DNA from: Endomicrobiales bacterium
GTDB lineage: Bacteria; Elusimicrobiota; Endomicrobiia; Endomicrobiales; JAFGIL01
Direction: 5' to 3'
Assembly: GCA_016929635.1 (NCBI GenBank)
Contig: JAFGIL010000010.1
Span: 829-64,828 of the forward strand
Length of the DNA: 64,000 bases
This document shows, in pieces, positions 9,735 to 58,000 of this stretch. The notes below the pieces were generated by a model that was not told where the DNA came from, did not search any database, and was given only the letters and a program-made list of their open reading frames with translations. The position numbers and the translations under genes are program-made. Positions within the stretch are counted from its first letter, which is position 1. Each line of letters begins with the position of its first letter.

Positions 9735-10463
9735 TTAGGTTTCGGCAAGTACTTTTTTCCCCAAAGAAACGTATTCCTTAAAAGTTGCCTTGAAAAATGT
9801 TTCGACAACCTCCAGGTTTCTTCCTTTCACTTGTGCCCAGTACTGCCCCAAAGCCAGACTCATTTTAACGTAATCGCGCGTTGCAATCTGGGATTTATAA
9901 CAGGATATAGCTTTCGCTTTACCTTCCCATACCCCGCTGATATCAGATAAAACATTCGGATATAAAGGAAACCAGACCGGATACGCATATATAAGAAAAT
10001 CATACTTCTTACTGTTCCCGGCTTTTATTAAAGCATTGTTAACTGCCCTGTGGTCATAATGATTGTCAAGCAAAAACGGAATAAAAACTATTTCAGGCTT
10101 TTTTTCATCAAACAAATTTATCATCTTTTCGGGCAAATCCTTTTGTTCTGCCAGAGAATTTATCCCGTACTTCCATGATACGGAATCATTTATTCCCAGG
10201 GATTTCATTGCATTTCTTGATTCCTCATCCCTGGATTCATTGTCCGCTGTACAAAAAGCTACTGCTGCATTACCGCCCGATTTAACGTGTTTAATTAATG
10301 TCCCTCCACAGCCAACCGATTCATCGTCCTGGTGAGGAGCTAAAACCAAAACATTCCTGCAGGGCAGCTTTTCCTCAAGAACAAGAGAGTACTTAAGATA
10401 CGGCTGAATCAACTCATACAAACGGAATAGTTTCTGATAACGAATAAATTTGACCATAATCAC
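9735..10463 (-). CDS. PIG-L/LmbE family deacetylase
   Basis: VLVLAPHQDDESVGCGGT motif. The start is ambiguous (GTG at 10463 or ATG at 10457). Confidence 0.8.
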   Translation of the reverse strand: MIMVKFIRYQKLFRLYELIQPYLKYSLVLEEKLPCRNVLVLAPHQDDESVGCGGTLIKHVKSGGNAAVAFCTADNESRDEESRNAMKSLGINDSVSWKYGINSLAEQKDLPEKMINLFDEKKPEIVFIPFLLDNHYDHRAVNNALIKAGNSKKYDFLIYAYPVWFPLYPNVLSDISGVWEGKAKAISCYKSQIATRDYVKMSLALGQYWAQVKGRNLEVVETFFKATFKEYVSLGKKVLAET

Positions 10464-11365
10464 CTTGAAAAATCAACCTGTTTCACACCGCGGGGGTGTG
10501 CAACAGGTTTGAAGTTTTTGTGTTCACCTACAGGCAATCCCCTGAAAAAATCCCGGATCCTGTCAGAGACTCCTCTTTGTTTCAAATATTCAACCTTGCA
10601 TGCTTTTATAAACGCTTCATTGTCATGATTCAGTTTCTCTTTAATAACCAGCGGGTGAGTGCCTTTAAAATCCTTAAGATTTCCCAGGTCTGAAAAAAAT
10701 TCTTTTGCTGTCTTATTGCCGCAGTTCTTTTCTATCCAGACATCATCGTGCCAAAACCTGTGGAAAGACTTTATCTTATCCAGCATTAAGTCTGGAGGCC
10801 GCGCCCATCCATAATGATAAATTTCCGCACCGGTTCCCAGGGCTTTTATCTTTTTCCCGTTTTTCCTGAATCCCTGGGCATCTCCGTGGGATTTGATCCC
10901 TCTATTATTGCGTATAACCCTTACTTCATGCTTATACCAATTACGGCCGGCCTGTACAGTATAATAGCTTCCGTAGAAATGTACGAAATCGAAAAATAAC
11001 CCGTCTATATAAGAACGGGGTTCTGCAAATTCCAGAGCTTTCCTGATTTTATCGAATCCCTCCTCATGTAAAAGCTCATCTGCTTGTATGTAAAATATCC
11101 ACTCACAATTACATTTGGACAAAGCCAGATTTGTCTGTTCAGACAAAACCATCCCCCCGTCCCTTTGTTCACTGTTCCACTCAGTGTCAAATATTTTTAT
11201 TTTTGGACTGCCAATATCTGCTATTTCTTTCCTGGTATTGTCCTTGGATTTCCCCACGCAGACAATCATCTCCTCGCAAACAGGCAGAACCGATTTTATT
11301 GATTCTACGAATGGATAACCTAATTTTATACCGTCTTTAATAATCGTACAGCCGCTTAATTTCAT
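10460..11365 (-). CDS. Glycosyltransferase family 2-like; C-terminus encoded by a REP element
   Basis: The likely start is the ATG at 11365 (MKLSGCTIIKDG..., an ATGA overlap with the upstream stop). The last 14 codons (VAHPRGVKQVDFSR) read through the REP hairpin at 10473..10503. Confidence 0.6.
   Translation of the reverse strand: MKLSGCTIIKDGIKLGYPFVESIKSVLPVCEEMIVCVGKSKDNTRKEIADIGSPKIKIFDTEWNSEQRDGGMVLSEQTNLALSKCNCEWIFYIQADELLHEEGFDKIRKALEFAEPRSYIDGLFFDFVHFYGSYYTVQAGRNWYKHEVRVIRNNRGIKSHGDAQGFRKNGKKIKALGTGAEIYHYGWARPPDLMLDKIKSFHRFWHDDVWIEKNCGNKTAKEFFSDLGNLKDFKGTHPLVIKEKLNHDNEAFIKACKVEYLKQRGVSDRIRDFFRGLPVGEHKNFKPVAHPRGVKQVDFSR
10473..10503 (-). repeat. REP hairpin copy (core CACACCGCGGGGGTGTG at 10484..10500)
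   Basis: The same 17-nt core recurs at 39803..39819 (inverted), 40578..40594 and 44603..44619. The stem is CACACC/GGTGTG. Confidence 0.85.
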
Positions 11366-12797: not shown

Positions 12798-12867
12798 TAC
12801 GGGCATAAAGCCCCACACTACAAAAATTATTTTTTTATGTAGTGTAGCCCCTTGTGGGCGTAATAAT
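12798..12867. repeat. Pair of inverted ~27-nt GC-hairpin repeat units (family 2)
   Basis: tacGGGCataaaGCCCcacactaca (12798..12822) and tgtagtgtaGCCCcttgtGGGCgtaataat (12838..12867). The same unit type occurs at 54833..54862 and 54894..54919. Confidence 0.75.
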
Positions 12868-27900: not shown

Positions 27901-30900
27901 ACATCTACGCTTTCTAACCGTTCCAGCAAATACACAATTTCAGGTCTATGATTCGGTCTTGTACCTTCTATGCTTACACCTAAACTTTCTAAGAAATCTC
28001 TTATACTCTTCGCTTTATTGCCATCATCTAAACCTTCTGCTAACGGAGAAATTAAAACCCGTAATATAATAGCTATATCATTTATAGTTAAGCGTTCTAA
28101 ATCTAAATCACTTAGTCTGCCTATTAGACTATCTACATCCGCAATAAAGGCAGTATCTAATGAAGACGAAATATCCACGGGCATAACTCCTGCATCACTT
28201 CCTTTTAGTCCCTCTAAAACACGTGGAAGTACTTTGAGAGATTCACCAACTGACAAACCTAAACCACCAACCAAATCATGGATTAGAATTAATGGTTTAT
28301 CATCATCCAAAGTTTCATCCAGTTCATCCAACATATCTCTTAAAGTTGGATCTAAATACATTTCAACATAATCTTCTACATCTTCAATAGATAATGTACC
28401 ACCATCTACTAATTTTCTGAGCCTTTCTGCTAGTGTATCTGCTGCATCTTGACTAACAAATAGTCTTTCCTCCGGGTCATGCGTAAGGTTCCATGCGGCG
28501 TGGGCTATGATGTTTGCAAGTTGGTCTATAGTCAGTCCTTTAGCAGCTGCTGCGGGATTTGTAAACTGCAGCCATTCATCTATAGATGTTAATACTAAAT
28601 CAGCTAAATCTGTAGGATTTAAACCTTTCAATGCTTTACGTTCTGCTTCTGGTAAAACCTCTTTGTCTTCTATTATGGCTCTCGCCACTTTAATCGCTTT
28701 ATCACGGGCGGTCTTACAATCTGTAAAAGTGAGTTCTCCTGCAATGTTTATTGAAGTCTGGATGAATATCATACCGCGCGTCAACGCATCCCTGTCGCTT
28801 TCCGGGCTATGTCTTGATAAAAATTCCTGGAATACCTCTCCGTTTTCACCATTTGCAATATAATCTGCCAATGCTGCTGTAACGTCATCAAGTTCCGCTA
28901 CAGGAGCAAAGCGTTCAGCTGCTTCTTTTGCATATATCTCCAACTCTTCTGGCTCTAATTCTTCTAACGAACGTCCGTACTTTAACAACACATACTCCCG
29001 TAATGTACCACGGGTAAGAATTGGCACACCAACACCTGATCCAACACGAATAGGACGGAAAAATACATCAGGTGCAACATGTCTATCATCAACTCCCAAA
29101 ACCGCTGCAGAAGCTTCTAACTCTACTTTCTGTCCAATCTCCAATTTTGCCCTTTCCAACAACTGATCAATTGTGGAAGGAGACATTGTTATTGCTGATA
29201 AATTGGAGCCCTGCCTTCGCGACAATATATTAAATAAAGGTACCGAATCCGATGCACCATCTATATGAATGCCTGGACACTCCGTACCAACTCTTTCCAA
29301 TGCAGATAAACTTACATTTTTTGACACCCCGGTTGGTGTTTCTACTACAAGAATGCGTTCTAAAATTTCTTTATCCAACGCTTCTTCAATGTCATCCAAA
29401 AAACAATATGGAGTAATGGTAACCAGTATGTTGTTTTCCGAGCAGTAATCTAAAAAAGCCATAAACTTAGATTTATTAGCTCTTAATTCAACGGGGAATT
29501 TTTTAGGGTCAAGGAATTCATCCAAGATTGTATCCCAATCAAAAGAAATCACGGCAACGGGTTTTTCCGGTATAAGCTCCCTCGAATCGTATGTCATATT
29601 AAATGCTGTGTGGGCACAGATATTGGCAAGTTGCTGCGCATTAAGATCGGAAAGATTAAGGTTCACAAGCCTTAAGCCCCTGAGTGTGTTTACAATTATC
29701 TTGATTATTAACAGAATTCTGTTTTGTTTTATTACAGTTTCTTCCTGCAGGATTGCCTTTGATATATCCCTTGCAACCCTAAACAGAGCAAAAACATTTA
29801 CAGAGTTCAGTGAGGCTGTTTCAACAAGAACTCTGTGAATAATGTCAATACCGCTTGCAAGCCTTAGGCGTTTATTAGCCCATTCGGCATCATCCATACC
29901 TTCGGGCTTGTGTGCATTGAGGAACCTATTCAATTCTGCATAGGAATTACGGCCTATTGATTTTGCAGCAACAACCGCCGATACATTCCCAAGTTCATCA
30001 AATATTTTCTCTAAATCACCCATCTCGGCTGACGGTGCATACCGCTCGGATGCTTCTTTTTCGAGTCTTTCCCGTTCTTTTGGATCTAACTCATCCCAGC
30101 TGTCCCACTTGGCTTGGCCATATTGTAATATCACGTAAGCTTTAATATTGGCTTGTGTTGTTAGTCTTTCATTGCGATACGGTTCATATACTGCATTTAC
30201 CAGCTGAGTAGCTTCTTTTGCAAAAGAAGCCTGGTTAATGTCTGTGTGGAAATAGCGCACTAATTTTCTGTATACTTTCTTCTTCGTCATTTGCGGGTTA
30301 ACTGAATTTAATATAGTATATGTTATTGATTGCGGCTTCTGCGCGACAACGGCTTGTATAACTTGTGCTATTTTAACCAACATCTCTGCATTAAAAGTTA
30401 TCCCCTCTGGATATGAATCTCTGGAAAGAGCATCCTGAATAATCCTTATTACACGCCCTAACTCTGTTAAATCTACTGCAAGTTCATTACTGCTGTATGA
30501 ACTTAGATATTTTTCAAGCTTTTTGTAAGCATCCATCTTGGGATCTTGTTCTTTCGCTTTTGGTGCTGCTTGTTTATATTTTTGCTCTGGTTCGTTAGGA
30601 ATACTTCCAAAAAGGTGTTCTAACAGATTTTTCCACTTTTCGGAAAAAGTTTCCAGAGCACCAGTAATCTCAGTGAGATTACATTGCGCAAACAAACTGG
30701 CGAAATAATCTGCAGTTGGATCTAATATATCTTTAATAAGTATCGTATCCATCTGCTGTATTAAAAATAGAATAGCAAGAGGCCTGTCCCTATCTGACAC
30801 ACCTGCTAAAAATCTATTTACCTCATAACCAAGCTTCTTGAATTGAGCAAGCTCCTGTTCGGTATAACCGGCAGTTATAGGAATCTCTAATGACATACCA

Positions 30901-36496: not shown

Positions 36497-36535
36497 CAAA
36501 ATAAAAAACCCATCCGGTTTACTTCTGGATGGGTT
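36497..36535 (-). terminator. Intrinsic-terminator-like hairpin between the small upstream ORF and the giant ORF's RBS
   Basis: The minus strand reads AACCCATCC-agaagtaaacc-GGATGGGTT followed by TTTTTTATTTTGTTTC, then AAGGAG and ATG. The stem overlaps the stop of ORF 36535..37053. Confidence 0.6.
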
Positions 36536-37053
36536 TATAAATTTTTATTTTCATGTATTAAATAATTTTTATCTATTGCGCCTCTGGGCAAAAGATATAG
36601 TATCATCAAGAACATTATGCATATCAGGAAACTTTCGAAATAGATATAAAATGCTATATATTCATAGAATAGATCAAAAGCATTTACCTGCACTTTAGAG
36701 AATATTGTGTTAGATGCGGTTAAACCGCCAAAAACATTACTCAAAGACGTGTCAAGATTGCTGTTAAACGTGTATAAAAAGTGGATGTTTTTTTTCTTAG
36801 GGTTCCTGTGTTGCTTGTGCTGTTGTGAAGTGTCAGAAAAGGTGTTTACGCTATCCGGCGCTATCGCATCAGTTACGATCTTAACTGAAGCCGATATGCA
36901 CCATGTTAGAAAAAAAGCTTTTGAGGCGTGAAGTGTATTGCTGAAATACTCCTCTTCAAACAAACAGGACAACTCATCACCTGCCTGACAAAAAGGAGAT
37001 ATTAGCTGGAGAAGCAAACTTGGAATGATAATTAAAAAAACCGTTAATTTCAT
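36535..37053 (-). CDS. Hypothetical small secreted/membrane protein
   Basis: 172 aa with an N-terminal signal-like segment MKLTVFLIIIPSLLLQLISPFCQA and a C-terminal hydrophobic helix. No recognisable family and a weak RBS. Confidence 0.4.
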   Translation of the reverse strand: MKLTVFLIIIPSLLLQLISPFCQAGDELSCLFEEEYFSNTLHASKAFFLTWCISASVKIVTDAIAPDSVNTFSDTSQQHKQHRNPKKKNIHFLYTFNSNLDTSLSNVFGGLTASNTIFSKVQVNAFDLFYEYIAFYIYFESFLICIMFLMILYLLPRGAIDKNYLIHENKNL

Positions 37054-37260: not shown

Positions 37261-39792
37261 TCATTGATTAATATACCCCCACTCCTCAAGCATGGAGCGA
37301 AGCTGTTTTGAGGATTTACCCGGCTCCTTCCTCTCAGTTAATTCATCATAAACTGTTCCCAGCAGTAATCTGTTCCCTTTAATAAATCTGAAATCATCCG
37401 GCCAGCCATCTATTTTATCCCGTTCAGAAGATGTTATTTTATATGAATCAAGCATAGGCAAGGCATATCTGCCAACAAGAATTTCTCCGTACTTCACCTG
37501 CCTGCCGTCCAAATATGAATTGATTGTAAATTCCAAATTTTCAGGTGTAATCCTGAATGACAATTCATCATCAGGATTTAATTTAAAACTGCAGTATCTT
37601 CTGCCTTTATTGAGAATCTCAGACGATGTTTCAATCCCGGATATCTCCCCTTTTGCATACAAATTAACTCTTACTGATCTATCTTTTTCTCCCAAAAACT
37701 TAACTTTATATTTTTTGCTTTTAGGCACATAGGCTTCCAACAGCCTTTTCATTCTTGGTAAGAGCGTTTTATTGAAGGGATGCTTATATGCCAGATTATT
37801 TTCACACAACGGGTCTTCTATGATGTTAAAAAGTTCATCAGCCACAACCGACTCTTCCGGAAATTTATTGCGCGGAGCAAAATTGTTGACGTATAGCCAC
37901 TCATTCTTCCAGTAAATCCCGTAGTTCTGCCATCCCTGGTGAAATGATACAATTTCTTCTTTTAACTCTTGTCCGGAAAACACGGCTTTTAAACTTTTTC
38001 CCTGAAACTCTTTTGGTATTTTCAGGTTCAATAGATCCAAAATGGTGGGGGCCAGGTCAAGCAGCTGTATTTTATCTTCAATTTTCAAGCCATTTTTGAC
38101 GTCGGGAATTAACATTTCTTCGGGTAATACAAAAAATAGCGGTACATTAATATCTTCAGGAATTAGCGATACTCCATGCGAGTGAAAAGTTACTTTTTTC
38201 TTCCTCCAGGGCCCGAACTTTGTCGGCCAGTCATATTCAAGTGTCCTGAAAGTAACACCGTGGTCAGATGTAAAAATAATAATCGTATCTTTATCCAGTC
38301 CGGAAGCCTCAAGATATTTTCTCAGCTGCCCGATATAGTCATCATGATAGATAATCTCACCCAGATAAAGTATCTTTCTGAAATTACGCAGAATACCGCC
38401 TCTTTTTACTGACTTCCAGACATATTTCAGCGGAGGCCGGTAAGGCCCGTGAGGCCCGTCATAATAAAGCATCATGAAAAACTTTTCCCTGCCGTGAGCT
38501 TTAAGCCACTTAATGCCCTCTTTTGTAACATGAGGAGGGCTGTACCCGGAATGCTCAAGGTTTATTACCTCATCGAAACCCAGGTCAGCGGAAAACCCCT
38601 GTCCGTCGGAAAAAAGAGAGCATGAGCCTATGGCCGCTGTTCTGTACCTGTTTTCCTTTAACTTAGAAAGAAGCGTCGGGAGTTTTCTTTCATAAAACTT
38701 CTCCCTTGCTTTTTTTGTTACCTCATAGTGAGTTGATATCTCGGAAATCCCGCTCGGGGGCTGCGACATTAGAAACGAAGGCACTGAAAGCTTGGTCATG
38801 TTTCCGTTAGAAAAAGCTTTGTTGAAATTTATGCCGCTTTCAGCATATCGCCATAAATTAGGAGAAAACCTGCTGTTTAAATGGTCTCTTCTGAACGAAT
38901 CAATAACTATTAAAATAACATTTGGTTCTTTTTGCTCGGTTACCTTAGTATAAATACCTGGCTGTGCCCAGAAAGCAAGAGTCGTGGTAGTGCTTATTTT
39001 CGGATAAGAATTCAAATCCGAAACATTCAAAGCCTGGCCGTAACACAATCCGGTGTCACAGGTTTTACATGCATCTCCATCAACTTCAAAAGATTCATCT
39101 GAAAGGTTGATATTTTCGGTTATGAATCGGATTTTAACCCACTGTTTCTCAAAATCCTTCAAGTCAACTTCCGCAAAATTCCATTTCCCGTCCCTTTCCT
39201 GTATCTGGGGATGGAAGTATTTATAGAAATTTTTGTAGTATCCGTCATGTGACTTCCACCTAAACGGGAGCAAGGGATACTCTGTTTTCTCAAAAACGAC
39301 GTGCGATTCCTTCTTCCTGTCAATAACGAATATTTTAAAACTGGCCGGTAAAAATATTGCCCTGTCGATAGATGAGACTATGCCGTAATCGAACTTCAGT
39401 ATGGGGTTTTCAGGGAGATAAAGCGCATATTCAATCACAGACGGAGTAGGAGCCATGATACAGTCCCGATGATCTGTTTTCAGGGGGAACCAGCCCAGTG
39501 ACAAATGCATATTCAAATCATGCATATGCTGGGATGGATGGTTTTGAAAGTATTGATACATTGCTAAATAATCCTTTGCTGAATCAAGGTCTCCTGTTTT
39601 TATCTTTGCATTTTTCAGGCCTTCCGTAAAATCATAGTAAAGCCTGTGCTTTACACTGAATTCTTGTCCGGGCAAGTCTGCCATTTCTATCCTTTGATCC
39701 CGAGGAATAACCAAAGACAGATAAAATACAGCAAATGCTATCAATAAAAATAAAAAAGTTATAAATATTATGCGCAAATAATCCTTAATCAT
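37261..39792 (-). CDS. Sulfatase-family (alkaline-phosphatase superfamily) membrane-anchored hydrolase/transferase
   Basis: About 843 aa from the ATG at 39792 (MIKDYLRIIFITFLFLLIAFAVF). The track's GTG at 39807 lies inside the REP hairpin. Core motifs are NVILIVIDSFRRDHL and IIIFTSDHG. Confidence 0.7.
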   Translation of the reverse strand: MIKDYLRIIFITFLFLLIAFAVFYLSLVIPRDQRIEMADLPGQEFSVKHRLYYDFTEGLKNAKIKTGDLDSAKDYLAMYQYFQNHPSQHMHDLNMHLSLGWFPLKTDHRDCIMAPTPSVIEYALYLPENPILKFDYGIVSSIDRAIFLPASFKIFVIDRKKESHVVFEKTEYPLLPFRWKSHDGYYKNFYKYFHPQIQERDGKWNFAEVDLKDFEKQWVKIRFITENINLSDESFEVDGDACKTCDTGLCYGQALNVSDLNSYPKISTTTTLAFWAQPGIYTKVTEQKEPNVILIVIDSFRRDHLNSRFSPNLWRYAESGINFNKAFSNGNMTKLSVPSFLMSQPPSGISEISTHYEVTKKAREKFYERKLPTLLSKLKENRYRTAAIGSCSLFSDGQGFSADLGFDEVINLEHSGYSPPHVTKEGIKWLKAHGREKFFMMLYYDGPHGPYRPPLKYVWKSVKRGGILRNFRKILYLGEIIYHDDYIGQLRKYLEASGLDKDTIIIFTSDHGVTFRTLEYDWPTKFGPWRKKKVTFHSHGVSLIPEDINVPLFFVLPEEMLIPDVKNGLKIEDKIQLLDLAPTILDLLNLKIPKEFQGKSLKAVFSGQELKEEIVSFHQGWQNYGIYWKNEWLYVNNFAPRNKFPEESVVADELFNIIEDPLCENNLAYKHPFNKTLLPRMKRLLEAYVPKSKKYKVKFLGEKDRSVRVNLYAKGEISGIETSSEILNKGRRYCSFKLNPDDELSFRITPENLEFTINSYLDGRQVKYGEILVGRYALPMLDSYKITSSERDKIDGWPDDFRFIKGNRLLLGTVYDELTERKEPGKSSKQLRSMLEEWGYINQ

Positions 39793-39799
39793 TTTACCC

Positions 39800-39837
39800 T
39801 TGCACACCCCCGCGGTGTGTTTCGCTATGGTTTTTCA
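39800..39837 (+). repeat. REP hairpin copy, inverted relative to the other three (3' flank of the RAYT gene)
   Basis: TTGCACACCCCCGCGGTGTG at 39800..39819, followed by a degenerate ATGGTT tail. Confidence 0.85.
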
Positions 39838-39874
39838 ATGTGTTTTTGTAGGATAATTCCATATTGATAGATTT

Positions 39875-40570
39875 CTACTCCAACAGGAGCTTCTTTATTT
39901 TTGCTAATTCCTTTTGATATGAAATATTATCATATACAAACCTTTTATAGTCTTCCGGATTAATATCCAGCAAATCATCATAGTTGCATATCTTTTTGTT
40001 ACTTTGAGTTTTATTTATATATTCATCAAATGAAGAGTGCTTCCAGTCATCTGGAATACTTACTAAACCCGCAGTTGTAGGATTAAGATGCAAATAACAC
40101 GTTAAATAAAGCAGTTGTTCTTGCGTCCTGACTGCTACATGTTTGAATCTACTTTCCCATAACGGGCCTTTTCGTTTATGTTTTGTGTTGAAATATCGTG
40201 TATAGCTGTTTAAAACATTATTCATAAATATAGAAATTCCGTTTTTTTCTTTCTGCTTCAGGACTAAATGAATATGAGTCGGCATGAGGCAATAAGTTAT
40301 TATTTCAACAAGCATATCTTGATTAGCAACATGTTCTGTTATAAATCTCTCATCATTTAATGATTCATTTTTTCTTAAGCACACTGAAAGACTTATATTT
40401 TGCCTAAACTTATAGTACTGGACTAATTGTATAAACCTTAAAAACTCATTGTTATCATTAAAAATCAGGTACTTAGCAATACTTCTATTGAATACATGAT
40501 AAACTCCATCTATTGCAAGCTTCTGATTTCTATATGGCATAAATCCATCCAAAACACATTGCAATTTCAA
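39875..40570 (-). CDS. REP-associated tyrosine transposase (RAYT; IS200/IS605 TnpA-like Y1 HUH enzyme)
   Basis: YHVFNRS..., the HUH motif in LMPTHIHLVLKQ, and the catalytic-Tyr helix YLTCYLHLNPTTAGLVSIPDDWKHSSFDEY. The track start is a TTG; the ATG at 40540 (MPYRNQ...) is more likely. Confidence 0.85.
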   Translation of the reverse strand: MKLQCVLDGFMPYRNQKLAIDGVYHVFNRSIAKYLIFNDNNEFLRFIQLVQYYKFRQNISLSVCLRKNESLNDERFITEHVANQDMLVEIITYCLMPTHIHLVLKQKEKNGISIFMNNVLNSYTRYFNTKHKRKGPLWESRFKHVAVRTQEQLLYLTCYLHLNPTTAGLVSIPDDWKHSSFDEYINKTQSNKKICNYDDLLDINPEDYKRFVYDNISYQKELAKIKKLLLE

Positions 40571-40597
40571 CCATATTCACACCGCGGGGGTGTGCAA
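40567..40597 (-). repeat. REP hairpin copy (5' flank of the RAYT gene)
   Basis: tcaaccatattCACACCGCGGGGGTGTGcaa is identical over 31 nt to the copy at 44592..44622. Confidence 0.9.
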
Positions 40598-40600
40598 AGG

Positions 40601-42685
40601 TTAAAATCCTATTTTGTCGCTGTCGTTTTCCATAAGTTTAATAAGGACTTGCTTTAACTCCCTGACTTTTCTTGGATTTTTATCCGCAACATCGACATTG
40701 TATCCTGTTTCATTTTTTATGTCGTAAAGCTCATACTTAACGCCTTCCCGAGTAGGTATATAGATAAGCCTGTAATTTCCATCGTCAATCATCCTGTGTT
40801 TTGCAATATTCAGCAGGTCCTGGTATTTATCCTTGATGATTACTTCCATATTATAAGTAAAATCAATCTCTGATATCCCGGTTATATCAGGATACATAAT
40901 GCGCTGCTCCTGATAAAACGCCTCAACAACATCGCTGAACCATATACCTGTCTCGGAAAATGCAACCAGTCCAAAATCCTGGTTCTCATCCCTTATTAGA
41001 GGCATCAAGCTTACTCCGTCAATTCCTTCGGGTATCCCCAGTTGCAGATAATCAAAAATAGTCGGCATCACGTCAACATCCCTTGTGACTTTCTCGACCT
41101 TTCTTTTTTTGAACAGTCCGTCAGGGAATCTGACAACTAACGGGACATTCAAAACATTCGGCCCTCTCAGGTGCTCGCCGTGCCCTATTGACCAACCATT
41201 CTCGTAAAGATTCTCGCCGTGATCAGCGGTTATTATAATGATAGTTTTATCAAAAACCTTTTTTCTCTTTAAAAATTCCGTTATATCTCCCACCGCTGAG
41301 TCAAAAGAGCTCACAGCTCCTTTATATAAACCCCGAATCTGCATTAAATCCTCTTCGTCAAAGGATTCCTTTTCATAAATCGTAGGCGGCTTCATATATT
41401 TATATTTTTTCCTGTAACCGGGCAGGGCATATTTTCTATAAAAAGGGTTTGGGGATGCGTAAGGAAAATGCGTTGCCGAAAAAAAAGTCAGGCAGCAAAA
41501 TTTCTCGCCTTTCATCAAGCATTTCAAAGTAGATTTGAGTTCCCCCGTAAGCAAAAATGGATCCCCGTTATTTGCCAGTTCCTTGAGTTCCGGAAAGATT
41601 GTGCGGGCAAAATTGTTTGTCAGATAAGGCAAAAGCATTAGATGCATTTCAAGTGAACGCTGGTTAATAATTGTCACAAAATTAAAATACGGCACCTTTA
41701 TCTTATCAAAACCTATATCCATTCTTGAAAAAACATCACCGGCAAAATCACTTACAACCGCTGTCCTGTATCCCTGTTTCCGCAGCATTTCTACAAAACT
41801 GTGTTTTCTGTGGTCTCTTTCCCACTTACTCGGAAACATATGCCTTACCCCGTGATTTAAGGGGTATTTCCCGGTTAGAAAAGATATCATGGCCGGAAAA
41901 GTCCGGGGCAAAGAGGTGTGAGCTGAATCGAACACAACTCCCTCATCAATCAGTTTGTTAATATTCGGGGTAACTTCCCTTTCATAGATCATGTCTTTTC
42001 TCAGGGAATCGGATGCAAGAATCAGTATGTTAGGCCCTTTGTTTTTATGGGATATGTTTAGGATATCCTTCATAAAAACAAATAAAACCAGGACTATGAA
42101 CACAGTTGCCAGCTTTACCCTTAACCTTGCATTATTTTTCAACCAAATCAATATAGAACTTAATAACAGCAGTATCAATAATACTTTTAGGGATAGCAGG
42201 GGCCAATCACCCATATAGTCAGTAACAAAAATCTGAAAAGCGCCAAGAATACCGCCTTTGTCGTAAAAAGCTTCCGAGTAAAGCTGAGGATATTTTTTTA
42301 ATGAGGCCAGCAGGAAATAAGCAAAAACCGTAAATATCCATAAAACACGCAGGCCCGCTTCACATCTCTGTTCTTTTGTAAATGAGAAAGGAGAAGGGTT
42401 GGAATTTTCTCTAAACAAATTCCTTACAACAAAATCCGAAGTTAATCCTACGATATATCCTATAATAGCGTATACCAGAAGTATTTTTACCTGGATGTAA
42501 AGAATGTACGGCCAGAATTTGTTTATTATGAGCTCCGAAACATCCGACTGGGTAATCCCCATCAAACTGAATCCGAAGTTCCAGATAAGAGAAATGAAAA
42601 AAAGGAAAGAATAGAAAACTATCCCGTATAAAGCGCCGCACGGCAAAAAGCGTTTTAATATAGGACAGACCCGATCTCTGAACAC
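40601..42685 (-). CDS. Polytopic membrane protein with C-terminal sulfatase/phosphoethanolamine-transferase-like domain
   Basis: 694 aa. About 5-6 N-terminal TM helices, then NILILASDSLRKD, HTSLPRTFPAMISFLTGKYP and IIITADHGE. There is no C/S-x-P-x-R formylglycine motif, so it looks like an EptA/LtaS-type transferase rather than a true sulfatase. Confidence 0.7.
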   Translation of the reverse strand: MFRDRVCPILKRFLPCGALYGIVFYSFLFFISLIWNFGFSLMGITQSDVSELIINKFWPYILYIQVKILLVYAIIGYIVGLTSDFVVRNLFRENSNPSPFSFTKEQRCEAGLRVLWIFTVFAYFLLASLKKYPQLYSEAFYDKGGILGAFQIFVTDYMGDWPLLSLKVLLILLLLSSILIWLKNNARLRVKLATVFIVLVLFVFMKDILNISHKNKGPNILILASDSLRKDMIYEREVTPNINKLIDEGVVFDSAHTSLPRTFPAMISFLTGKYPLNHGVRHMFPSKWERDHRKHSFVEMLRKQGYRTAVVSDFAGDVFSRMDIGFDKIKVPYFNFVTIINQRSLEMHLMLLPYLTNNFARTIFPELKELANNGDPFLLTGELKSTLKCLMKGEKFCCLTFFSATHFPYASPNPFYRKYALPGYRKKYKYMKPPTIYEKESFDEEDLMQIRGLYKGAVSSFDSAVGDITEFLKRKKVFDKTIIIITADHGENLYENGWSIGHGEHLRGPNVLNVPLVVRFPDGLFKKRKVEKVTRDVDVMPTIFDYLQLGIPEGIDGVSLMPLIRDENQDFGLVAFSETGIWFSDVVEAFYQEQRIMYPDITGISEIDFTYNMEVIIKDKYQDLLNIAKHRMIDDGNYRLIYIPTREGVKYELYDIKNETGYNVDVADKNPRKVRELKQVLIKLMENDSDKIGF

Positions 42686-43605: not shown

Positions 43606-44588
43606 TTTTTTACTTCCTTTAATACATCTTCGGGTTTTATTTCCCTTAAACAGGGAAAATCCTTGCACTTAGGCTGTGTCCTGCACGGAGAACAGGGATA
43701 ATCTTTTCTTATTATAACAGCGTTCCTTGAAATCGGGGCAGTTTCGTTTACGTCAGATCCTCCGAAGATTGCTATTGTAGGAATATTCAGGGCTGCGGCA
43801 AGCTGTACCGGGCCGGTATCTCCCCCGATTACTAACCTGCATTTTTTCAATATACCATGAAGCGCAGGTAAAGAAGTCTGCCCGCATAAATTTATAATGT
43901 CGGGATTATTAGTTGGTTCAAAGTCGCCTTTATTGCCTAAAATTAAAATCTTAATATCGTACTCCAGCTTTAACATTGAATCAATAAGCTCCATATAGTG
44001 TTGCTTTGGCCATCTTTTTGATAACCCCCGCGCATGCGGCACAATGCCGATAATTCTGTCTGAAATAGGGAGTCCATTTTTTTCAAGTATTTCCTCAGTC
44101 CGCTTCTCGCTTTCGGGCGTTGCCTTAATGTTGAACTTAGGTTCTACTTTTTTCCCTGCAATAAAACGGACCGTCTCAAGGTTCCTGTTAACGGCATTGA
44201 AAGAACTGCTTTCAGGAAAAACCTCCTTTTCAAAAATCCAGCTGAACTCCTTTAATCCCGGAACACCTATCCTTTGTCTTGCTCCGGATAAAAGCGAAAT
44301 AAGGCTTGTCCTCAGCAAACCCTGTAAATCAATAACCAAATCAAATCTTTTTTCCTGAACACTCATTATCACCCGGAGAAACTCAACTATCCCATTGTTT
44401 CTATTCCACACCATAATGTCATCTACATCGGGGAAAAGGGATAACAAATCTGCAAACGTATCAAAGACAAGCCAGGATATATTACTGTCCGGGTAAAGCT
44501 TCTTTAAAGCAACCAGAGTCGGATTTGCATGTATTATATCACCAAATGAGCTTGGTTTTATTATTAAAATCTTCATAAACACCTTCAT
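43593..44588 (-). CDS. Glycosyltransferase family 9 (heptosyltransferase-like)
   Basis: ILIIKPSSFGDIIHANP, GGDTGPVQLAAALNIPTIAIFG and a CSPC...C tail. Confidence 0.8.
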   Translation of the reverse strand: MKVFMKILIIKPSSFGDIIHANPTLVALKKLYPDSNISWLVFDTFADLLSLFPDVDDIMVWNRNNGIVEFLRVIMSVQEKRFDLVIDLQGLLRTSLISLLSGARQRIGVPGLKEFSWIFEKEVFPESSSFNAVNRNLETVRFIAGKKVEPKFNIKATPESEKRTEEILEKNGLPISDRIIGIVPHARGLSKRWPKQHYMELIDSMLKLEYDIKILILGNKGDFEPTNNPDIINLCGQTSLPALHGILKKCRLVIGGDTGPVQLAAALNIPTIAIFGGSDVNETAPISRNAVIIRKDYPCSPCRTQPKCKDFPCLREIKPEDVLKEVKKWIK

Positions 44589-46285
44589 TTTTCAACCATA
44601 TTCACACCGCGGGGGTGTGCAAGAAAGGTTTTGGATGCTTCAAATACTTCGTCCACTGTAACCAGCTCCATACATTTTTTGGTTACACAGTTACGATTGC
44701 GGCATGGCTGACAATCAACCTTATGCTGAATAATCTTTACATTTTTACCGTAAGGACCTGTACGGTTGGCGATAGTCGGCCCTAGTATGGCAACAACAGG
44801 AACGTTTAATGCACAGGCTAAATGCATGGGCCCTGCTTCATTTCCGACAAATAAACAGCTTTTTTTAAACAATGCCGCAACTTCATTTAAATTGAGCATT
44901 CCTGTTAAATCTGTCATACCGTTTTTACTCTTATGCTTTATTAACTGGTTCAATCCTTTCTCGCTTGCTCCTCCTTCTTTTCCTCCTATAAGTATCACCT
45001 GCGCTCCGAATTCAGAAACTAATTTATCTGCAAGCTCAGAAAACCTTTCAGGAAACCAGCGCCTGGCAATCCATCCCCCGCCCGGAAACATAATCACAAC
45101 AGGTTTTTCTGCATTAATACCTTTTTCTTTTAAAATACTATCGACCCTTTTAGCGACCTCTTCCTTGATAATAATTTTATATTCAGGGTTATCCTTCAGG
45201 CATCCCAAATATTCCGCAACTCTTAGATGCCGGTTAATACAATGAGTATCGATTTTTTCAGGCTTAATTTCTTTCGAGAACAGCCAGGACAGCTCTTTCA
45301 TCCCATAAGTGGAGCCCGACGCAAGCTTAAACCTGGCACCTGCCATCCATACCATAAATGCGGATTTAAACAATCCGTGCAAATCTATGCTTAAATCAAT
45401 CTGTTTTGACCTCAAATATTTTCTCAGTTTCGAGAAGTAACCTAATCCTGTTTTTCTTCGGTCAAATATAATCACTTCATCCAAATCCGGGTTGCCTTCC
45501 AAAACCGGCGCACAGCGTTCGTCAACAAACCACCCTATCCATGCTTTGGGATACTTTTTTCTTAAAGCGGACAGCGTAGGCAGTGCAAAAACAACATCAC
45601 CTATGCGGCTTGGCTGAACTATAAGAATTTTCGGGCACGGATGATGCTCCAGATATTCCCTGGCATCTTTTGACCAGAAATAGTTATTCGTGAACAAAGA
45701 CAGCTCTTCCAGGGATTCTTTTATATCTCTTGTATAATTCTCAATTTCTGTTTCTTTCTCTATTTTTACAGGTTTGCCATACGCCACTACAGCCCTGGAA
45801 AAAGGGACCGGCAGCTTATACTGGTCCCATGTTTTCCTAAGCAGTTTATGTTTTTTTGAACAAGTGCTTACAGGGACAAGCAGTCTGTTTGACTTCATAG
45901 CAAGATAAAGGACACCCGGTTTCACGTCGTGCAGAGGGCCTTTCGGGCCGTCTACCGCAAAAGCAGTGGAATATCCGTTTTTTACCATGCGTATTATCTT
46001 CACCAATGCTTTTTCCCCGCCTTTAGTCGAAGAACCCCTTACCACCGAATATCCAAGCAGCTGAAGTATACCGCTTTGTATTTCCCCGTCCCTTGAAAGG
46101 CTGCTCATGAGCACGGCTTTCCTGCTCTGCCTTTGGCAATAAAGAAGAAATTGCTCTCCATGCCAGAACGCAAATACAACGTTTTCTTCTTTTCTCCAGA
46201 CTTCGCCGTTTACTTCATCAATCCGCAAAGTCATATTGAGCAATCTTATTATTATCCATCCGATAAAAGATATGAGTTTTGTCAT
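44585..46285 (-). CDS. Fusion protein: DUF374 (lysophospholipid-acyltransferase-like) + GT9 heptosyltransferase-like domain
   Basis: The N-terminal ~200 aa carry FAFWHGEQFLL...SLSRDGEIQSGILQLLGYSVVRGSSTKGG...FAVDGPKGP (DUF374). The C-terminal ~350 aa carry ILIVQPSRIGDVVFALPT...GNEAGPMHLACALNVPVVAILGPT (GT9). Confidence 0.75.
   Translation of the reverse strand: MTKLISFIGWIIIRLLNMTLRIDEVNGEVWRKEENVVFAFWHGEQFLLYCQRQSRKAVLMSSLSRDGEIQSGILQLLGYSVVRGSSTKGGEKALVKIIRMVKNGYSTAFAVDGPKGPLHDVKPGVLYLAMKSNRLLVPVSTCSKKHKLLRKTWDQYKLPVPFSRAVVAYGKPVKIEKETEIENYTRDIKESLEELSLFTNNYFWSKDAREYLEHHPCPKILIVQPSRIGDVVFALPTLSALRKKYPKAWIGWFVDERCAPVLEGNPDLDEVIIFDRRKTGLGYFSKLRKYLRSKQIDLSIDLHGLFKSAFMVWMAGARFKLASGSTYGMKELSWLFSKEIKPEKIDTHCINRHLRVAEYLGCLKDNPEYKIIIKEEVAKRVDSILKEKGINAEKPVVIMFPGGGWIARRWFPERFSELADKLVSEFGAQVILIGGKEGGASEKGLNQLIKHKSKNGMTDLTGMLNLNEVAALFKKSCLFVGNEAGPMHLACALNVPVVAILGPTIANRTGPYGKNVKIIQHKVDCQPCRNRNCVTKKCMELVTVDEVFEASKTFLAHPRGVNMVEK
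44592..44622 (-). repeat. REP hairpin copy inside the 3' end of the DUF374-GT9 gene
   Basis: tcaaccatattCACACCGCGGGGGTGTGcaa. It encodes the terminal peptide AHPRGVNMVEK and ends beside the ATGA stop/start overlap with the next gene. Confidence 0.9.
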
Positions 46286-49154: not shown

Positions 49155-50570
49155 TTATAAACTAAGTTTTTCTATTATTCTTTCCTGGAAAAGCAGTTCA
49201 TATATTGATTTTGTAACTAAAATTGCAGTAAACATGCTGACCAGAATACCTAGAGTCAGAGTCACGGCAAAACCTTTTACAGGCCCCGTGCCGAACTGAA
49301 ATAAAAATATGGCAGCGATCAGAGTCGTAACATTTGCATCCATAATCGTGTGAAAAGCTTTCTGATAACCCGCATCAACCGCAAGCCTGTGGGTTTTACC
49401 TGCTTTCAGTTCCTCTCTGATCCTTTCCAATATCAGAACGTTTGCATCAACCGCCATACCCAGGGTCAATATAATACCTGCCATACCGGGCAGTGTAAGC
49501 GTAAACCTGAAGTATGCCATTAACCCAAGTAATAATATAATATTAAGAAAAAGAGCGAAGTCAGCTATCAAACCGGAGAACTTGTAGTAGAACGCCATAA
49601 ATATAAGTACGACTATAGCACCAAAAATAGTTGCCTTTACTCCTGCCTTAATTGAATCCTCACCCAATGTAGGCCCTACGGAACGCTCCTCAATAATCTT
49701 TACCGGTGCAGGTAATGCACCAGCTCTTAATATAGTTGCAAGCAGTTTTGCATCTTCCATGGTAAAATTACCTTCAATAATAGCCTTTCCGTCGGGAATA
49801 CGCGTTCTTATTACGGGAGCTGATTGAACAACCCCGTCTAATACAATAGCCAGGTTTCTTTCTATATTTTCTCCTGTTACGCGTGAAAATATTTTTGCGC
49901 CGTCCCTGTTAAACTCAATGGAAACGTGAGGATAACCAAACTCTCCGCCGATATTCACCTTTGCGTCTACAAGATAAGCCCCTGTAAGCTCAGGTGATGA
50001 TTTTAAAATGTAGTAACGGTCTTCCTTGCCGGGAAAAACCGCATGCCCTTTAGGAATCATTTTTACGATTTCAGGAAAATCGTTTAGCTCCTCAAAACGG
50101 GCTTCTTTTTCCCTCAACTCCTCTGCTATGTCACCCAAGGCTGTACTCTCATCCACCAGGCGAAATTCCAGAAGTGCGGTTTTGCCGATTAAATCCTTTG
50201 CTCTTTCCGGATCTTTTATGCCGGGCAGCTGAATTACAATCCACCTTTCTCCCTGGCGTGCAATTAAAGGTTCTGCAACGCCAAACTGGTCCACTCTGTT
50301 ACGGATTATCTCAATTGCCCGTCCTATCGCATCATTTACGTCAACACCCGGCTCAAGCTTATCAGCATCCAGCTCAAGTACCAGATGTATTCCTCCTCGG
50401 AGGTCCAATCCCAGGTTCAGGATTTTACTTACAATCTTGTCTTTGAGCCTCTCCCTTTTATCCCTTTCCTGTTGAGACAATCCATACCACTCAACTGTGG
50501 GGTAAAGGAAATAAATTGCCAATCCCAAAAAAAGCACAGTTACCAAAATTTTTACTTGCAATCTGGACAT
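49155..50570 (-). CDS. secD: Protein translocase subunit SecD
   Basis: 471 aa with LGLDLRGGIHLVLE, a periplasmic P1 domain, and the TM core with AVDANVLILERIREE. GAGG lies 6 nt upstream of the ATG. Confidence 0.95.
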   Translation of the reverse strand: MSRLQVKILVTVLFLGLAIYFLYPTVEWYGLSQQERDKRERLKDKIVSKILNLGLDLRGGIHLVLELDADKLEPGVDVNDAIGRAIEIIRNRVDQFGVAEPLIARQGERWIVIQLPGIKDPERAKDLIGKTALLEFRLVDESTALGDIAEELREKEARFEELNDFPEIVKMIPKGHAVFPGKEDRYYILKSSPELTGAYLVDAKVNIGGEFGYPHVSIEFNRDGAKIFSRVTGENIERNLAIVLDGVVQSAPVIRTRIPDGKAIIEGNFTMEDAKLLATILRAGALPAPVKIIEERSVGPTLGEDSIKAGVKATIFGAIVVLIFMAFYYKFSGLIADFALFLNIILLLGLMAYFRFTLTLPGMAGIILTLGMAVDANVLILERIREELKAGKTHRLAVDAGYQKAFHTIMDANVTTLIAAIFLFQFGTGPVKGFAVTLTLGILVSMFTAILVTKSIYELLFQERIIEKLSL

Positions 50571-50590: not shown

Positions 50591-50685
50591 GGGACAGACA
50601 CTTTATGTTTTATATGTTTCTATTTAAAATACTTAGTAATTAATATACTGTACAATAAACATATAAAACATAAAGTGTCTGTCCC
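50591..50685. repeat. 95-bp palindromic element: 29-bp perfect inverted arms + 37-nt AT-rich loop
   Basis: GGGACAGACACTTTATGTTTTATATGTTT (50591..50619) has its exact reverse complement at 50657..50685. TTTT flanks both sides. It fills the gap between the HD-gene stop and the secD RBS. Confidence 0.9.
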
Positions 50686-50687
50686 TT

Positions 50688-51374
50688 TTAAAGAAGTTTT
50701 TTTCCGTTTATTATTAATTCAAACTTACACTTCAGAAACTCTGCTGCTCTTCTGCACATTATCATCCGGGACATGAATATTTCAAAATACTCCATTACTT
50801 TAGAAATATTCTGGTCAACATTCAATTCCAGGGTAATAATCTTTTTATTGCCGTCGATTTTCAGGAAAGACCTTTCAACGGCAAAGTTTACCCTGTCATG
50901 AATATCTACTGCGATCATGCTGGGATTACGCACCCGTGCTTTATGAACATCAGATTTATCCGCCAGTATCAATGCTGCTGCAACCGGATTAACGGGATCT
51001 CCTATTTCCTCCTCGTGGTTTCCGATAGCTGAAATTACCATAGCAATTTCATTAGGGTCAGCGCCCATTTGTTTTAAAATCTTCATAGAAATAAGAGCAG
51101 CCGACTGTCCGTGATCCTGACGGTTCACGACATTTCCTATATCATGCAGATACCCTGCTATTCCTGCCAGCTCCGGCATCGGATGTTCATAACCTAAATG
51201 ATTCAATACATTCTGAGCTACAGAGGCAACCAGACTCACATGCCTGAAACCATGCTCTGTATATCCTACTGCTCCCAAATAGCTGTTGGCAGCCTCGATA
51301 AAATTATTTACCGTATGGTTCTTTTTTACTGCCTCAAGAGTAATCCCGGAGTATTTTTGTTTGGTTTTTACCAT
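50688..51374 (-). CDS. HD-domain phosphohydrolase-like protein (paralog 1)
   Basis: 228 aa with YTEHGFRHVSLVA, GYLHDIGN and ILADKSDV. Collinear with the protein at 54150..54818. Confidence 0.7.
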   Translation of the reverse strand: MVKTKQKYSGITLEAVKKNHTVNNFIEAANSYLGAVGYTEHGFRHVSLVASVAQNVLNHLGYEHPMPELAGIAGYLHDIGNVVNRQDHGQSAALISMKILKQMGADPNEIAMVISAIGNHEEEIGDPVNPVAAALILADKSDVHKARVRNPSMIAVDIHDRVNFAVERSFLKIDGNKKIITLELNVDQNISKVMEYFEIFMSRMIMCRRAAEFLKCKFELIINGKKLL

Positions 51375-54832: not shown

Positions 54833-54919
54833 TGTAGTGTAGGCCTTTATGGCCGTAATAATAAAAACATCCATATTTTTAGTATGTTATTTCTTATGCC
54901 CACAAGGGGCTACACTACA
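54833..54919. repeat. Pair of inverted family-2 GC-hairpin repeat units
   Basis: tgtagtgtaGGCCtttatGGCCgtaataat (54833..54862) and ttatGCCCacaagGGGCtacactaca (54894..54919). They match the units at 12798..12867, with compensatory stem changes. Confidence 0.75.
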
Positions 54920-54952
54920 TATATTATAAGTCATTAACTACACTGCTGGAAT

Positions 54953-55030: not shown

Positions 55031-55086
55031 CGTAGGGGCGACTTTAGTCGCCCTTAATAAAAAGGGCGGATAAATCCGCCCCTACG
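55031..55086. repeat. 56-nt compound hairpin: two inverted 25-nt units, each with its own GC mini-hairpin
   Basis: cgtagGGCGACtttaGTCGCCctt / aataaa / aagGGCGGAtaaaTCCGCCcctacg. It starts 5 nt after the stop codon of the >=2,956-aa ORF. The internal stems differ by compensatory changes (GAC/GTC versus GGA/TCC). Confidence 0.8.
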
Positions 55087-55091
55087 AAGAA

Positions 55092-58000
55092 CTACGCAGC
55101 GGAAGTTATTGCCTGATGCAAAGCAGTATCAAAGGAGTCATCCAGCAGGTCTTTTAATGATTCTTTTATTTTCAAATCCCTGATTTTATCTATTATTCCA
55201 AGCAGATACTGTTCAAATTCAGCATAAATCTGTGCCCTATCGCTGACTGCTGCCTGCTCGTATATCTCTTTGTAGCTTAAAACCCTGCGCCTGATGCCGT
55301 CAAACACTACTCTGTCTCGCTTAATATCTTTTTCTGTTTTAACAGTAAACTCTTCTTTATCAAACTTAGACAATATTTCAGCTATTTTCTGCCCTTCACT
55401 GACCTCATCAGACTCCTCTTCCAGTATTCCTAAAATTTCATTGAAAAGCTCCTCATGCAATTCCTTTACTTTAATACCATGATCAAACTTATATCCTAAA
55501 TTATATGCTTCCTTTTTCTTCTCTTCAGGAGTCCTGGGCCCCATAATATTAGTGATTAAATTCAAAATCTGAAGTTCTGCAACCTGCGCCCTTGCAACGC
55601 TTTCTGCTTCCGCAAAATCATTATCCAGCGTTAACCATACGGCTCCGGACTTACCGGCTTTTAACGTTATATTCCTTATCCTGGTTTCAGTTTCTTTATC
55701 CACTACAAGCTCAGTAAAGTTAAGTTTCAAAGCTTCATTCGAACCTTCGGCTACTTCAGGGATTTGATCAGGATCTGTAATAAGATGTTCTATCACAAAA
55801 GAACCGTACCTGCTTTGAATTATATTCTTAATTTCCTCCGCATTTCTGATATCAGCCCCAAAGGAAATCGAAACAAGGAAATCTTTATCATCCATAAGAT
55901 TGAATAAATCCTGGAAATCACTAAAATCCATTCTGCCTTCCAGATTTATATTAAAATGTACCCCATCAAAACCTAAAGTTTTTATAAGTGTGATTTTATC
56001 CGTATTTGATAAGTCTTCTATACTGGATATATTGCATCCTGCGACCAGTTTCTTACCGGATTTTCCAGCAGTTTTTACAAGCATACTTATTTGTGATTGC
56101 ATGGCTTTATCTTTATCTACAACCGCCTCTTTAGGAGCCATCTCTGAACCCATTTCTTCCATCTCACCCAGCTGAGATTCATCCAGCCAACCCAAATTTA
56201 AAGAACCATTCTCAACCAAGTTGTCTATCCGCACTATACCGCTTCTTTCCATTACAGATCCATCACTGGGTTTGCTGATTAAACCGGCTATATCCGTTAT
56301 TGTATTTATTCCTCTCTGCCAGAGTCCAACTTCAACTGCAAGACCGGTACCTCTTGCAAACGATTCAACTGATTTCTGCCTTGCAATCTGGCATAGATCA
56401 ATCTTGAACTCTTCTATATCGTCTTTTCCCTGAATGATATGCGCGTTGCCAAGCAATGTATCTCTGTCTATCTCATCAACAGAAGTTTCAGGTGAAGAGA
56501 TATTAGGGATATCCTGATCAAATCCTTCTCTTCCAGCAGAAGAAATAACAATATCCGGCATAAGCAGGCTTCCATCCTGGAATCTACTCGGCAATCCCAG
56601 TTCTTTAAGCTGCCTGACTAACCCTCCGTTCTTGTGCACATTTTTCCAGAACTCAACTGCCAATAATCTTAAAAGGGCATCTACATCCAAATCTTCAATG
56701 TCTCCCAAGACTTCTTCCGGATTTTGTATATGCAAATTAATTGCGGAACCGTTTTGAGTAGGTATAACTTCAGCCCAGACTCTAAAGGCTTTTGCAGCTC
56801 CTTCATAGTTAAGCACTAAATTAGGTTTCAACTCCAAATAATCTTTCACCTGCGAGCTTTCCGCATAACCGGCAAACCTGATAACATTGAATCCTGCTCC
56901 AGCAATGGCATTCATCCTGTCTTGTGCAACAGTATCCGTCTCCCCTGAATCATTAATGAAATATACTGTTGGTGACTGCGCCACACCAAAGTTTTCCCTT
57001 AAAAATCTGCATCTATCCATCGTATTTTTAACTACTTTTTTCACCAAACTTTTTATACTTACCGTCTTTCCCGCTATCTCAATCCCGCTGATAACAGCAT
57101 TCGGTGTATCATGTTCGGATCTGAATTTGTCGGCTATTACTTGAACTACTCCTGCAAATATTCCCTGTGGGGATCGGGCATTCCTTTCAAAAGATTCTAG
57201 CAGCGGGGCTTGTGCTGCCACACTGCCCAATGCCGCTAAAACCGGAGACTGGCTGTATTTTAATTCTGGTTTAATTGGGACATTTTTTGCAGGATTATAT
57301 TCACCTATATCCAACAATACAGCCTTAGCAGCTTCAGAAAGTATCAAATTCGAATCATTCTTCATTCTATCCTCTACTTCCGATATCAAAGCAAAAATAT
57401 GGCTTTCAGAACTCCTATCCATACCATATTTCGTAAGCCACAGTTCGATTACTTGTCTTTTAATCTTTCCTATCTGTTCTCTATTTTCTGCTTTTGTATC
57501 GGTAACCTCTTCGAAGTGTTCCACATCATAAAAATATGGATGCCCATCCCGAACAATAATATTAAAAAGAAAATGAGATGAAACAAAATACCCGCATTCA
57601 GCAACTTGATCCCCGATAGCTTCTAATTCTCTAAAAAACTCCCAGGTTATTTTCCCTGCTTCTTCCGAAAGGCCGTATAGATTATCACCTTCCAAATACT
57701 CCATTAGAATTGCCCTTCCCCAATATTCACCTGTTTCACTCTTTTCATCCAGTTCCGGAGCTCCTGCAACTTTATTCTCATTCAGCTTATATAAAATCTG
57801 CATCTCCTTGAGGAATAAATCCACAAAACGTTCATGCCTGCATAATTTTAACAGCTTTACTTTCGGACTTCCAACAGAGTCTCTGTCTGCGTTATCATTT
57901 ACTATCATCCCAAAAGCATTAACTCCCCTGCCGGCAATATCTATGAGCTGCAAATTATCATCTATTTCCCGGACCAAATGGTACTTCAATATCTGCGGTA

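Follow-up and report, generated by a model that had tools for sequence, protein, structure and literature searches.

Systems in which a repetitive extragenic palindrome (REP) is paired with a REP-associated tyrosine transposase (RAYT) provide the best example of a transposase domesticated along with miniature repeats, and knowledge of them is drawn almost wholly from Proteobacteria together with a small number of other cultivated phyla. In E. coli the pair, or REPtron, is built on TnpA-REP (RayT, or YafM; PDB 4ER8), a protein of subclass 2.2 (Quentin et al. 2018) and Group 2 (Bertels et al. 2017). Canonical REPs are defined by a GT[AG]G foot, which is found in the REPs of subclasses 2.2, 2.4, 2.5, 2.7 and 2.8 (PMC6006769). 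Subclass 2.1, the TIRYTs (Di Nocera et al. 2013, PMC3733652), has the motifs Y[IV]HLNP and WE, an SS tail and a median length of 238 amino acids (aa), and has been reported without REP-like hairpins, while the TnpA-Y1 proteins of subclass 2.6 and class 3 are accompanied by 'atypical secondary structures' (PMC6006769). The subject here is a Y1 HUH endonuclease gene and its hairpin repeats in a 64,000-nucleotide (nt) stretch of DNA from an Endomicrobiales bacterium of the phylum Elusimicrobiota (assembly GCA_016929635.1, contig JAFGIL010000010.1, positions 829 to 64,828 of the forward strand), called the window below and numbered from its first letter. The locus is quite likely of REP/RAYT type, that is, a domesticated class-2 Y1 HUH single-stranded DNA endonuclease gene lying between cognate palindromic repeats, with solo copies of the repeat nearby.

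The Y1 HUH gene and its hairpins in the window

The RAYT-like gene occupies 39875..40540 on the minus strand and encodes 221 aa plus stop, with the HUH motif at H89-I-H91 and the catalytic tyrosine, Y149, in the motif YLHLNP (family consensus Y-I-H-L-N-P). A sequence-only reading of this DNA had proposed a RAYT-like coding sequence of 231 aa between hairpins; the gene and its placement hold, whereas the length is 221 aa and the strand is minus. The longer reading begins at a TTG (40570) within the repeat arm and the shorter at the ATG at 40540 (MPYRNQ), a start backed by an identical public protein (annotated 'transposase'), by the gene call on an independent contig and by alignment with 19 relatives. 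The protein does contain the features singled out in that reading, an HUH motif (PTHIHLV) and the tail YLHLNPTTAGLVSIPDDWKHSS, and also has LWE and a WxxSS tail. Residues T88, H89, H91, W128-E129, Y149, H151, L152, N153 and S169 are invariant in 20 aligned sequences, and P154 and S170 nearly so. A variable insert precedes the HUH strand, and the protein ends in a 71-aa tail that includes a two-helix extension of about 50 aa; neither the whole protein nor this tail gave a Pfam match to a helix-turn-helix (HTH) domain (E <= 1). One copy of the Y1 gene is present in the window.

The protein matches Pfam Y1_Tnp at 35 bits (cut-off 23), and its earlier attribution to the RAYTs rather than to IS200 was borne out by both sequence and fold. 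It scores 60.8 bits with the NCBIfam model REP_Tyr_transpos (NF047646, an equivalog model) and 18.1 bits with transpos_IS200 (NF033573), the latter under the cut-off of 55. All 20 aligned family members are matched by the RAYT model (E <= 0.01, best 1.2e-20), and two of them, weakly, by the IS200 model. A family-profile search of solved structures returned 4ER8, the E. coli TnpA-REP on its REP hairpin, as the best match (E 1.4e-5), with ISDra2 TnpA at E 0.002. The AlphaFold model (pLDDT confidence score 76, predicted template-modelling score 0.77) likewise found 4ER8 as the closest fold (E 3.4e-5; template-modelling score 0.65, target-normalised), followed by the IS608 and ISDra2 transposases. 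With its Y---NP motif the protein belongs, in the scheme of Quentin et al. (2018), to class 2, which contains the RAYTs, and not with IS200.

The gene is bracketed by the same 17-nt hairpin core in opposite orientations, as had been read from the letters and as a pattern scan confirmed. The downstream core, at 39803..39819, reads CACACC-CCCGC-GGTGTG (CACACCCCCGCGGTGTG) on the plus strand, and the upstream core, at 40578..40594, reads the same on the coding (minus) strand; the 6-nt stem CACACC/GGTGTG encloses the loop CCCGC. The scan also recovered the two further cores expected away from the gene, at 10484..10500 and 44603..44619, which makes two solo copies in 63 kb. When up to two mismatches were allowed, exactly four cores were found in the window against 0.00 expected from 100 dinucleotide-preserving shuffles, which rules out a chance origin, and a relaxed scan for CACACC-N3-9-GGTGTG returned the same four sites only.

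The core is real, but the whole repeat is longer than the 17 nt initially described. Repeat search and alignment showed the gene flanks to be inverted repeats of about 73 nt. The upstream arm (40532..40605) includes a TAACC foot, the hairpin and GGTTGAAA, with sequence as far as the opening codons of the Y1 gene; the downstream arm (39792..39864) reaches at its outer end the ribosome-binding region and ATG (39792) of the next sulfatase-family gene. Both solo copies lie on the minus strand and have about 58 nt in common with the upstream arm, at 74-83% identity. One (44565..44630, core 44603-44619) is placed between two heptosyltransferase genes. The other (10446..10509, core 10484-10500), between an unannotated open reading frame (ORF) and a PIG-L deacetylase gene, is the longest palindrome of the set, AACCTGTT-hairpin-AACAGGTT, with 14 of 16 positions paired. 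An identity of 31 nt had been noted between 40567-40597 and 44592-44622; it is exact and reaches 33 nt (40565-40597 and 44590-44622), and this single identical pair suggests recent mobilisation. The shared block begins at TTG, at a variable distance after AACC, so that AACC may belong either to the element or to its target.

Folded as single-stranded DNA, the 49-nt elements form the hairpin, with a stem that AACC...GGTT pairs lengthen in three of the four copies. The 10484 copy is the most stable (-14.1 kcal/mol, z -5.2), followed by the 40578 copy (-8.6 kcal/mol, z -3.6), the 44603 copy (-6.1 kcal/mol) and the 39803 copy (about -6 kcal/mol). Rfam gave no match in the window at gathering thresholds. 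Intrinsic terminators were also considered; none of the four hairpins was called as one, and none has a T run. A role of the hairpins in mRNA processing or stability is possible.

Set beside the described systems, the window protein shares with E. coli TnpA-REP the Y1 HUH fold, the Y---NP motif and a W-x-x-S-[ST] tail, and the locus resembles the E. coli REPtron in having a single-copy gene (here within the window), inverted flanking cognate palindromes and further intergenic copies. The two proteins are, however, only about 15% identical in a structure-based alignment, the window protein being longer (221 aa against 165) through its variable pre-HUH insert and two-helix C-terminal tail and having T-H-I-H in place of D-H-L-H. 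The window-family repeats also differ from E. coli REPs in the lack of a GTAG foot and in copy number, which is in the tens at most, against hundreds. Among described proteins, those of subclass 2.1 (Bertels Group 1) come closest in motifs, with a Y[IV]HLNP-type motif, W-E, an SS tail and more than 200 aa, and the long inverted repeats around the gene recall the TIRtron of that subclass; the window protein departs from it in T-H-I-H (N-H-u-H in 2.1) and in giving no C-terminal HTH match, and its family is nearly always hairpin-associated.

The IS200/IS605 TnpA proteins (IS608, ISDra2; subclass 1.1) have the same fold and catalytic motifs, with hairpins near both gene ends. They differ from the window protein in Y---Q instead of Y---NP, in length (about 130-155 aa rather than 221) and in copy number, and no tnpB is present here; their hairpins lie on the same strand, as at most related loci, whereas those in the window are inverted. 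Subclass 2.6 and class 3 (Quentin et al. 2018) offer a further likeness, their genes being flanked by non-GTAG hairpins that are copied elsewhere in the genome, but their motifs (YIH[QN]NP and WQ in subclass 2.6; Y----Q and a CnGA foot in class 3) and their taxonomy (Bacteroidetes; Planctomycetes/Acidobacteria) are different.

Hairpin pairs in related loci and other genomes

The nearest non-identical relatives of the window protein are 50-57% identical to it and come mainly from metagenome-assembled genomes (MAGs) of Omnitrophota, with others from Elusimicrobiota and Scalindua. In clusters at 90% identity the window protein is a single member, and the clusters of its relatives are nearly all singletons. 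When 1.84 billion cluster representatives were searched exhaustively, 197 matched at E<=1e-30, 5,655 at <=1e-10 and 20,741 at <=1e-3. The flanks were surveyed by script in 80 metagenome loci encoding relatives, 73 of them non-redundant and with enough flanking sequence.

In 64 of these 73 loci the gene is bracketed by a hairpin pair, the loop centre typically lying 30-90 nt before the start codon on the upstream side and 15-45 nt past the stop on the downstream side. Both flanks carry an identical core in 57 of the 64, yet there are 39 distinct cores among them, and when flanks were paired across loci only 3.7% were identical. The layout of the element is shared: (T)AACC and 4-10 nt precede a stem with CACC at its end, which is followed by a loop of 3-5 nt, GGTG, 4-10 nt and GGTT(A). 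Across the 128 hairpins the 18 nt on the 5' side show a 10.9-fold enrichment of AACC, and the 3' side a 7.5-fold enrichment of GGTT. The orientation of the two flanks is not fixed in the family: it is direct in 39 loci, inverted in 24 and ambiguous in one, and where the loop differs by at least 3 nt between orientations 24 are direct and 12 inverted. The inverted, RAYT-like arrangement emphasised in the sequence-only reading thus describes the window and is no rule for the family.

The hairpin and the protein have changed together at a conserved position. Three related loci (L095, L102 and L123) are syntenic on both sides, with neighbouring genes 72-78% identical and Y1 proteins 60-64% identical, and their hairpins are all different (CTCACTTCCGAAGTGAG, ACCCGTTCCTGGAACGGG and ATCACCTACGAGGTGAT), each matched on its own two flanks; the TAACC/GGTTA feet are kept in all three, save for single substitutions in a few of them. 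Vertical inheritance of the gene, with repeats that track the specificity of the protein, would be expected to give such differing matched pairs, and the change of a matched pair at an orthologous site is poorly explained by host signals unrelated to the gene. Conserved operon membership of the Y1 gene was also considered and rejected, the commonest neighbour family being present in only 4 of 69 loci.

In 12 loci further copies lie over 250 nt away from the gene (26 copies in 640 kb); the chance expectation for cores of such length is estimated at well under one per 20 kb. One locus, L091, has ten extra copies in 20 kb, all in gaps directly after stop codons and within a repeat of about 70 nt. 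Viewed as a whole, positions 3900-11800 of L091 contain about 12 copies of this repeat, with the hairpin CACCTACGAGGTG, all intergenic and arranged around the Y1 gene; it is the densest case among the loci and is suited to study of the family.

The exact 17-mer of the window was also sought in other genomes, in a scan of one genome per species in which the source MAG was not included. It occurs at four to six sites in each of two Omnitrophota MAGs, JAUXSB01 (L004, L020, L025, L047 and L058) and MHGF01 (Omnitrophica WOR_2 GWF2_43_52; L015, L030, L033 and L036), and at one site in a third. The remaining 56 loci of the scan are, save one, single matches, mostly in high-GC genomes, where they are due to chance. 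Inverted doublets 21-25 nt apart, the REPIN form, are found at all four MHGF01 sites and at least two JAUXSB01 sites, and some of the Omnitrophota doublets are bracketed by TAACC ... GGTTA. The presence of one 17-mer in Omnitrophota and in an Elusimicrobiota-labelled MAG may reflect shared ancestry, transfer of the system or mislabelling. In a tblastn search of the Omnitrophota loci the only match was a distant Y1 gene of 2.1 type, in L047 at 7 kb from the hairpin; over the core, its product and the window protein have 33% identity (E 6e-18). That gene (L047 7000-7995) encodes a 305-aa Y1 protein with NHLH, YIHLNP, SS and weak C-terminal HTH matches, and is flanked by terminal inverted repeats of about 34 nt (CATTTTAAGCATTGCTTAAAATGTAAAGTTATTT); it is a TIRtron of subclass 2.1 type in the same MAG as the CACACC hairpins.

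Gene junctions and the competing explanations

The genes on either side of the Y1 gene are both of the sulfatase family, and all three lie within a lipopolysaccharide-core cluster, among whose other members are three family-9 heptosyltransferases, a Kdo transferase, an O-antigen ligase and a PIG-L deacetylase. The three hairpin copies of like orientation fill very short gaps between co-directional genes of this cluster, each 25-45 nt upstream of the next start codon, and the Shine-Dalgarno-like sequence AAGGTG follows both solo copies. Repeat and coding sequence also meet at the stop codons. The preceding sulfatase-family gene ends in the TAA of the TAACC foot (40601-40603), and in related loci the Y1 gene's own stop codon is often within the TAACC foot of the downstream element. 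In both solo copies the foot is AAACC and the upstream ORF continues in frame through the hairpin, ending in ...AHPRGVNMVEK* at the 44603 copy and ...AHPRGVKQVDFSR* at the 10484 copy. The tails read through the repeat, at 44585-44640 and 10460-10520, both include AHPRGV and are probably repeat-encoded extensions rather than native C-termini.

If the locus is of REP/RAYT type, then by analogy with TnpA-REP and IS608 the protein would bind the folded hairpin in single-stranded DNA, and Tyr149 would cleave near the conserved feet with a metal ion held by His89 and His91. Cleavage and rejoining would copy or move the short hairpin elements while the gene stays put, and the repeats would be spread or homogenised by the protein rather than by recombination or gene conversion. 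The combination of constant feet with variable inner hairpins suggests that the feet are cleavage or target sequences and that the hairpin is the determinant of specificity; in IS608, the sequence TTAC belongs to the target.

Several findings weigh against a REP/RAYT assignment. The canonical GT[AG]G foot is missing, the hairpins being flanked by TTG and by (T)AACC / GGTT(A), and the RAYT-model score of the protein falls under the curated cut-off of 80 bits. Flanking hairpins are direct, like IS200/IS605 ends, in 39 of the 64 related loci, and most 20-kb loci have no copies beyond the flanks. Where copies could be counted they are few, with two solo copies here and only four to six exact sites per Omnitrophota MAG, and tblastn found no close homologue of the Y1 gene in the 8-kb loci around the Omnitrophota copies. 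Some of this would fit an autonomous IS200/IS605-like insertion sequence in which hairpin, gene and hairpin move together as single-stranded DNA, the solo hairpins being leftover ends or derivatives resembling miniature inverted-repeat transposable elements. The same-strand hairpins prevail also where loop asymmetry is robust (24 of 36 loci), most loci lack copies past the two flanks, and the neighbour genes differ at nearly all loci, as they would if the unit had been mobile over long times. Such an insertion sequence is nevertheless improbable here. In the window the hairpins are inverted and the gene is present once, and the public clusters are singletons. The protein, with Y---NP in place of Y---Q and 221 aa against about 150, reaches only 18 bits with the IS200 model, whose cut-off is 55. 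In the three syntenic loci, moreover, the gene has been kept at the same site while its product diverged to 60-64% identity, which argues for vertical inheritance and not reinsertion.

The placement of the hairpins at gene junctions could instead mean that they are regulatory elements of the host (mRNA-stabilising stem-loops, processing sites or protein-binding sites) unrelated to Y1 activity. Three same-orientation copies in short co-directional gaps, 25-45 nt before the next start, and AAGGTG after both solo copies are consistent with this, and REPs in E. coli do affect mRNA stability. The idea does not account for the matched hairpin pair that each of 64 among 73 related genes has in otherwise unrelated contexts, or for the joint change of both flanks at orthologous sites; the hairpins also lack an Rfam match and a terminator-type T run. 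An exclusively regulatory origin is accordingly very unlikely, whereas a regulatory side-effect is compatible with RAYT-driven spread and is not an alternative to it.

A possible subclass and the remainder of the window

Systems of this kind are known (REP/RAYT, REPtron/TIRtron). Published classifications, which did not cover these phyla, seem to contain neither the protein subclass nor the repeat type. Elusimicrobia and Omnitrophica are nowhere mentioned in PMC6006769, and its Table S1 contains no consensus that starts with an AACC or TAACC foot and none that matches two common cores of the family. Among the papers listed by a literature search, none links REPs to Elusimicrobiota or Omnitrophota. 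It can be put forward, tentatively, that the family is a large RAYT-like subclass outside those classifications, with its own class of double-footed repeat whose hairpin changes with the protein. Its members may be defined by a length of about 220 aa, by T-H-I-H ... Y-[IL]-H-L-N-P ... SS and by a two-helix tail without HTH, and may amount, at 50% identity, to some 200 clusters, for the most part from MAGs of Omnitrophota, Elusimicrobiota and Planctomycetota. The repeat may take the form (T)AACC - spacer - xxCACC-loop-GGTGxx - spacer - GGTT(A), with constant feet, and may favour stop codons and operon junctions, where it would at times supply the stop codon or be read through. Since the flanking repeats are direct in some relatives and inverted in others, the subclass could capture the passage by which a mobile IS200-like unit becomes an immobilised RAYT.

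The locus carries the principle of one gene, one cognate hairpin and concerted change into uncultivated lineages, without the GTAG foot as a guide and in a family whose nearest described protein subclass (2.1) was reported hairpin-free. The 39 cores in 64 loci, with their feet constant, are material for learning how Y1 nucleases read hairpins, and the mixture of direct and inverted flanks is relevant to the immobilisation of IS200-like elements. In annotation, short C-terminal extensions of the 'AHPRGV' type on neighbouring genes find an explanation as read-through of a repeat.

A second repeat family, unrelated in sequence to the first and with the canonical GTAG tag, was also observed in the window (12797-12866, 54834-54860, 54891-54921 and 55032-55085). 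Four copies have the form GTAGTGTRG-short hairpin-RTAA, two of them in an inverted doublet at 12821(-)/12839(+) and the others at 54834(+) and 54918(-). An inverted doublet at 55032/55085 reads GTAGGGGCGAC-TTTA-GTCGCCC / GTAGGGGCGGA-TTTA-TCCGCCC. As no second Y1 gene is present in the window, any cognate RAYT of this family lies elsewhere. All of the GTAG-tagged elements are in gaps just downstream of two giant ORFs, 12978-36479 (-) of 7,833 aa and 55092-63962 (-) of 2,956 aa. Within the larger of these, repeats of about 200-260 nt lie some 7.4 kb apart (21052-21533 and 28459-28928) and are 78% identical.

The window has a G+C content of about 39-40%, a negative plus-strand GC skew throughout, and all of its long ORFs on the minus strand. 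ORFs 49155-50570 and 50688-51374 are separated by 117 nt, the greater part of which is taken up by a perfect 29-bp inverted repeat (50591-50619 / 50657-50685, spacer 37 nt). A hairpin with a 12-bp stem, followed by a T-rich run and terminator-like on the plus strand, is found at 36506-36536, in the gap that separates the start of the larger giant ORF (36479) from the end of ORF 36535-37053.

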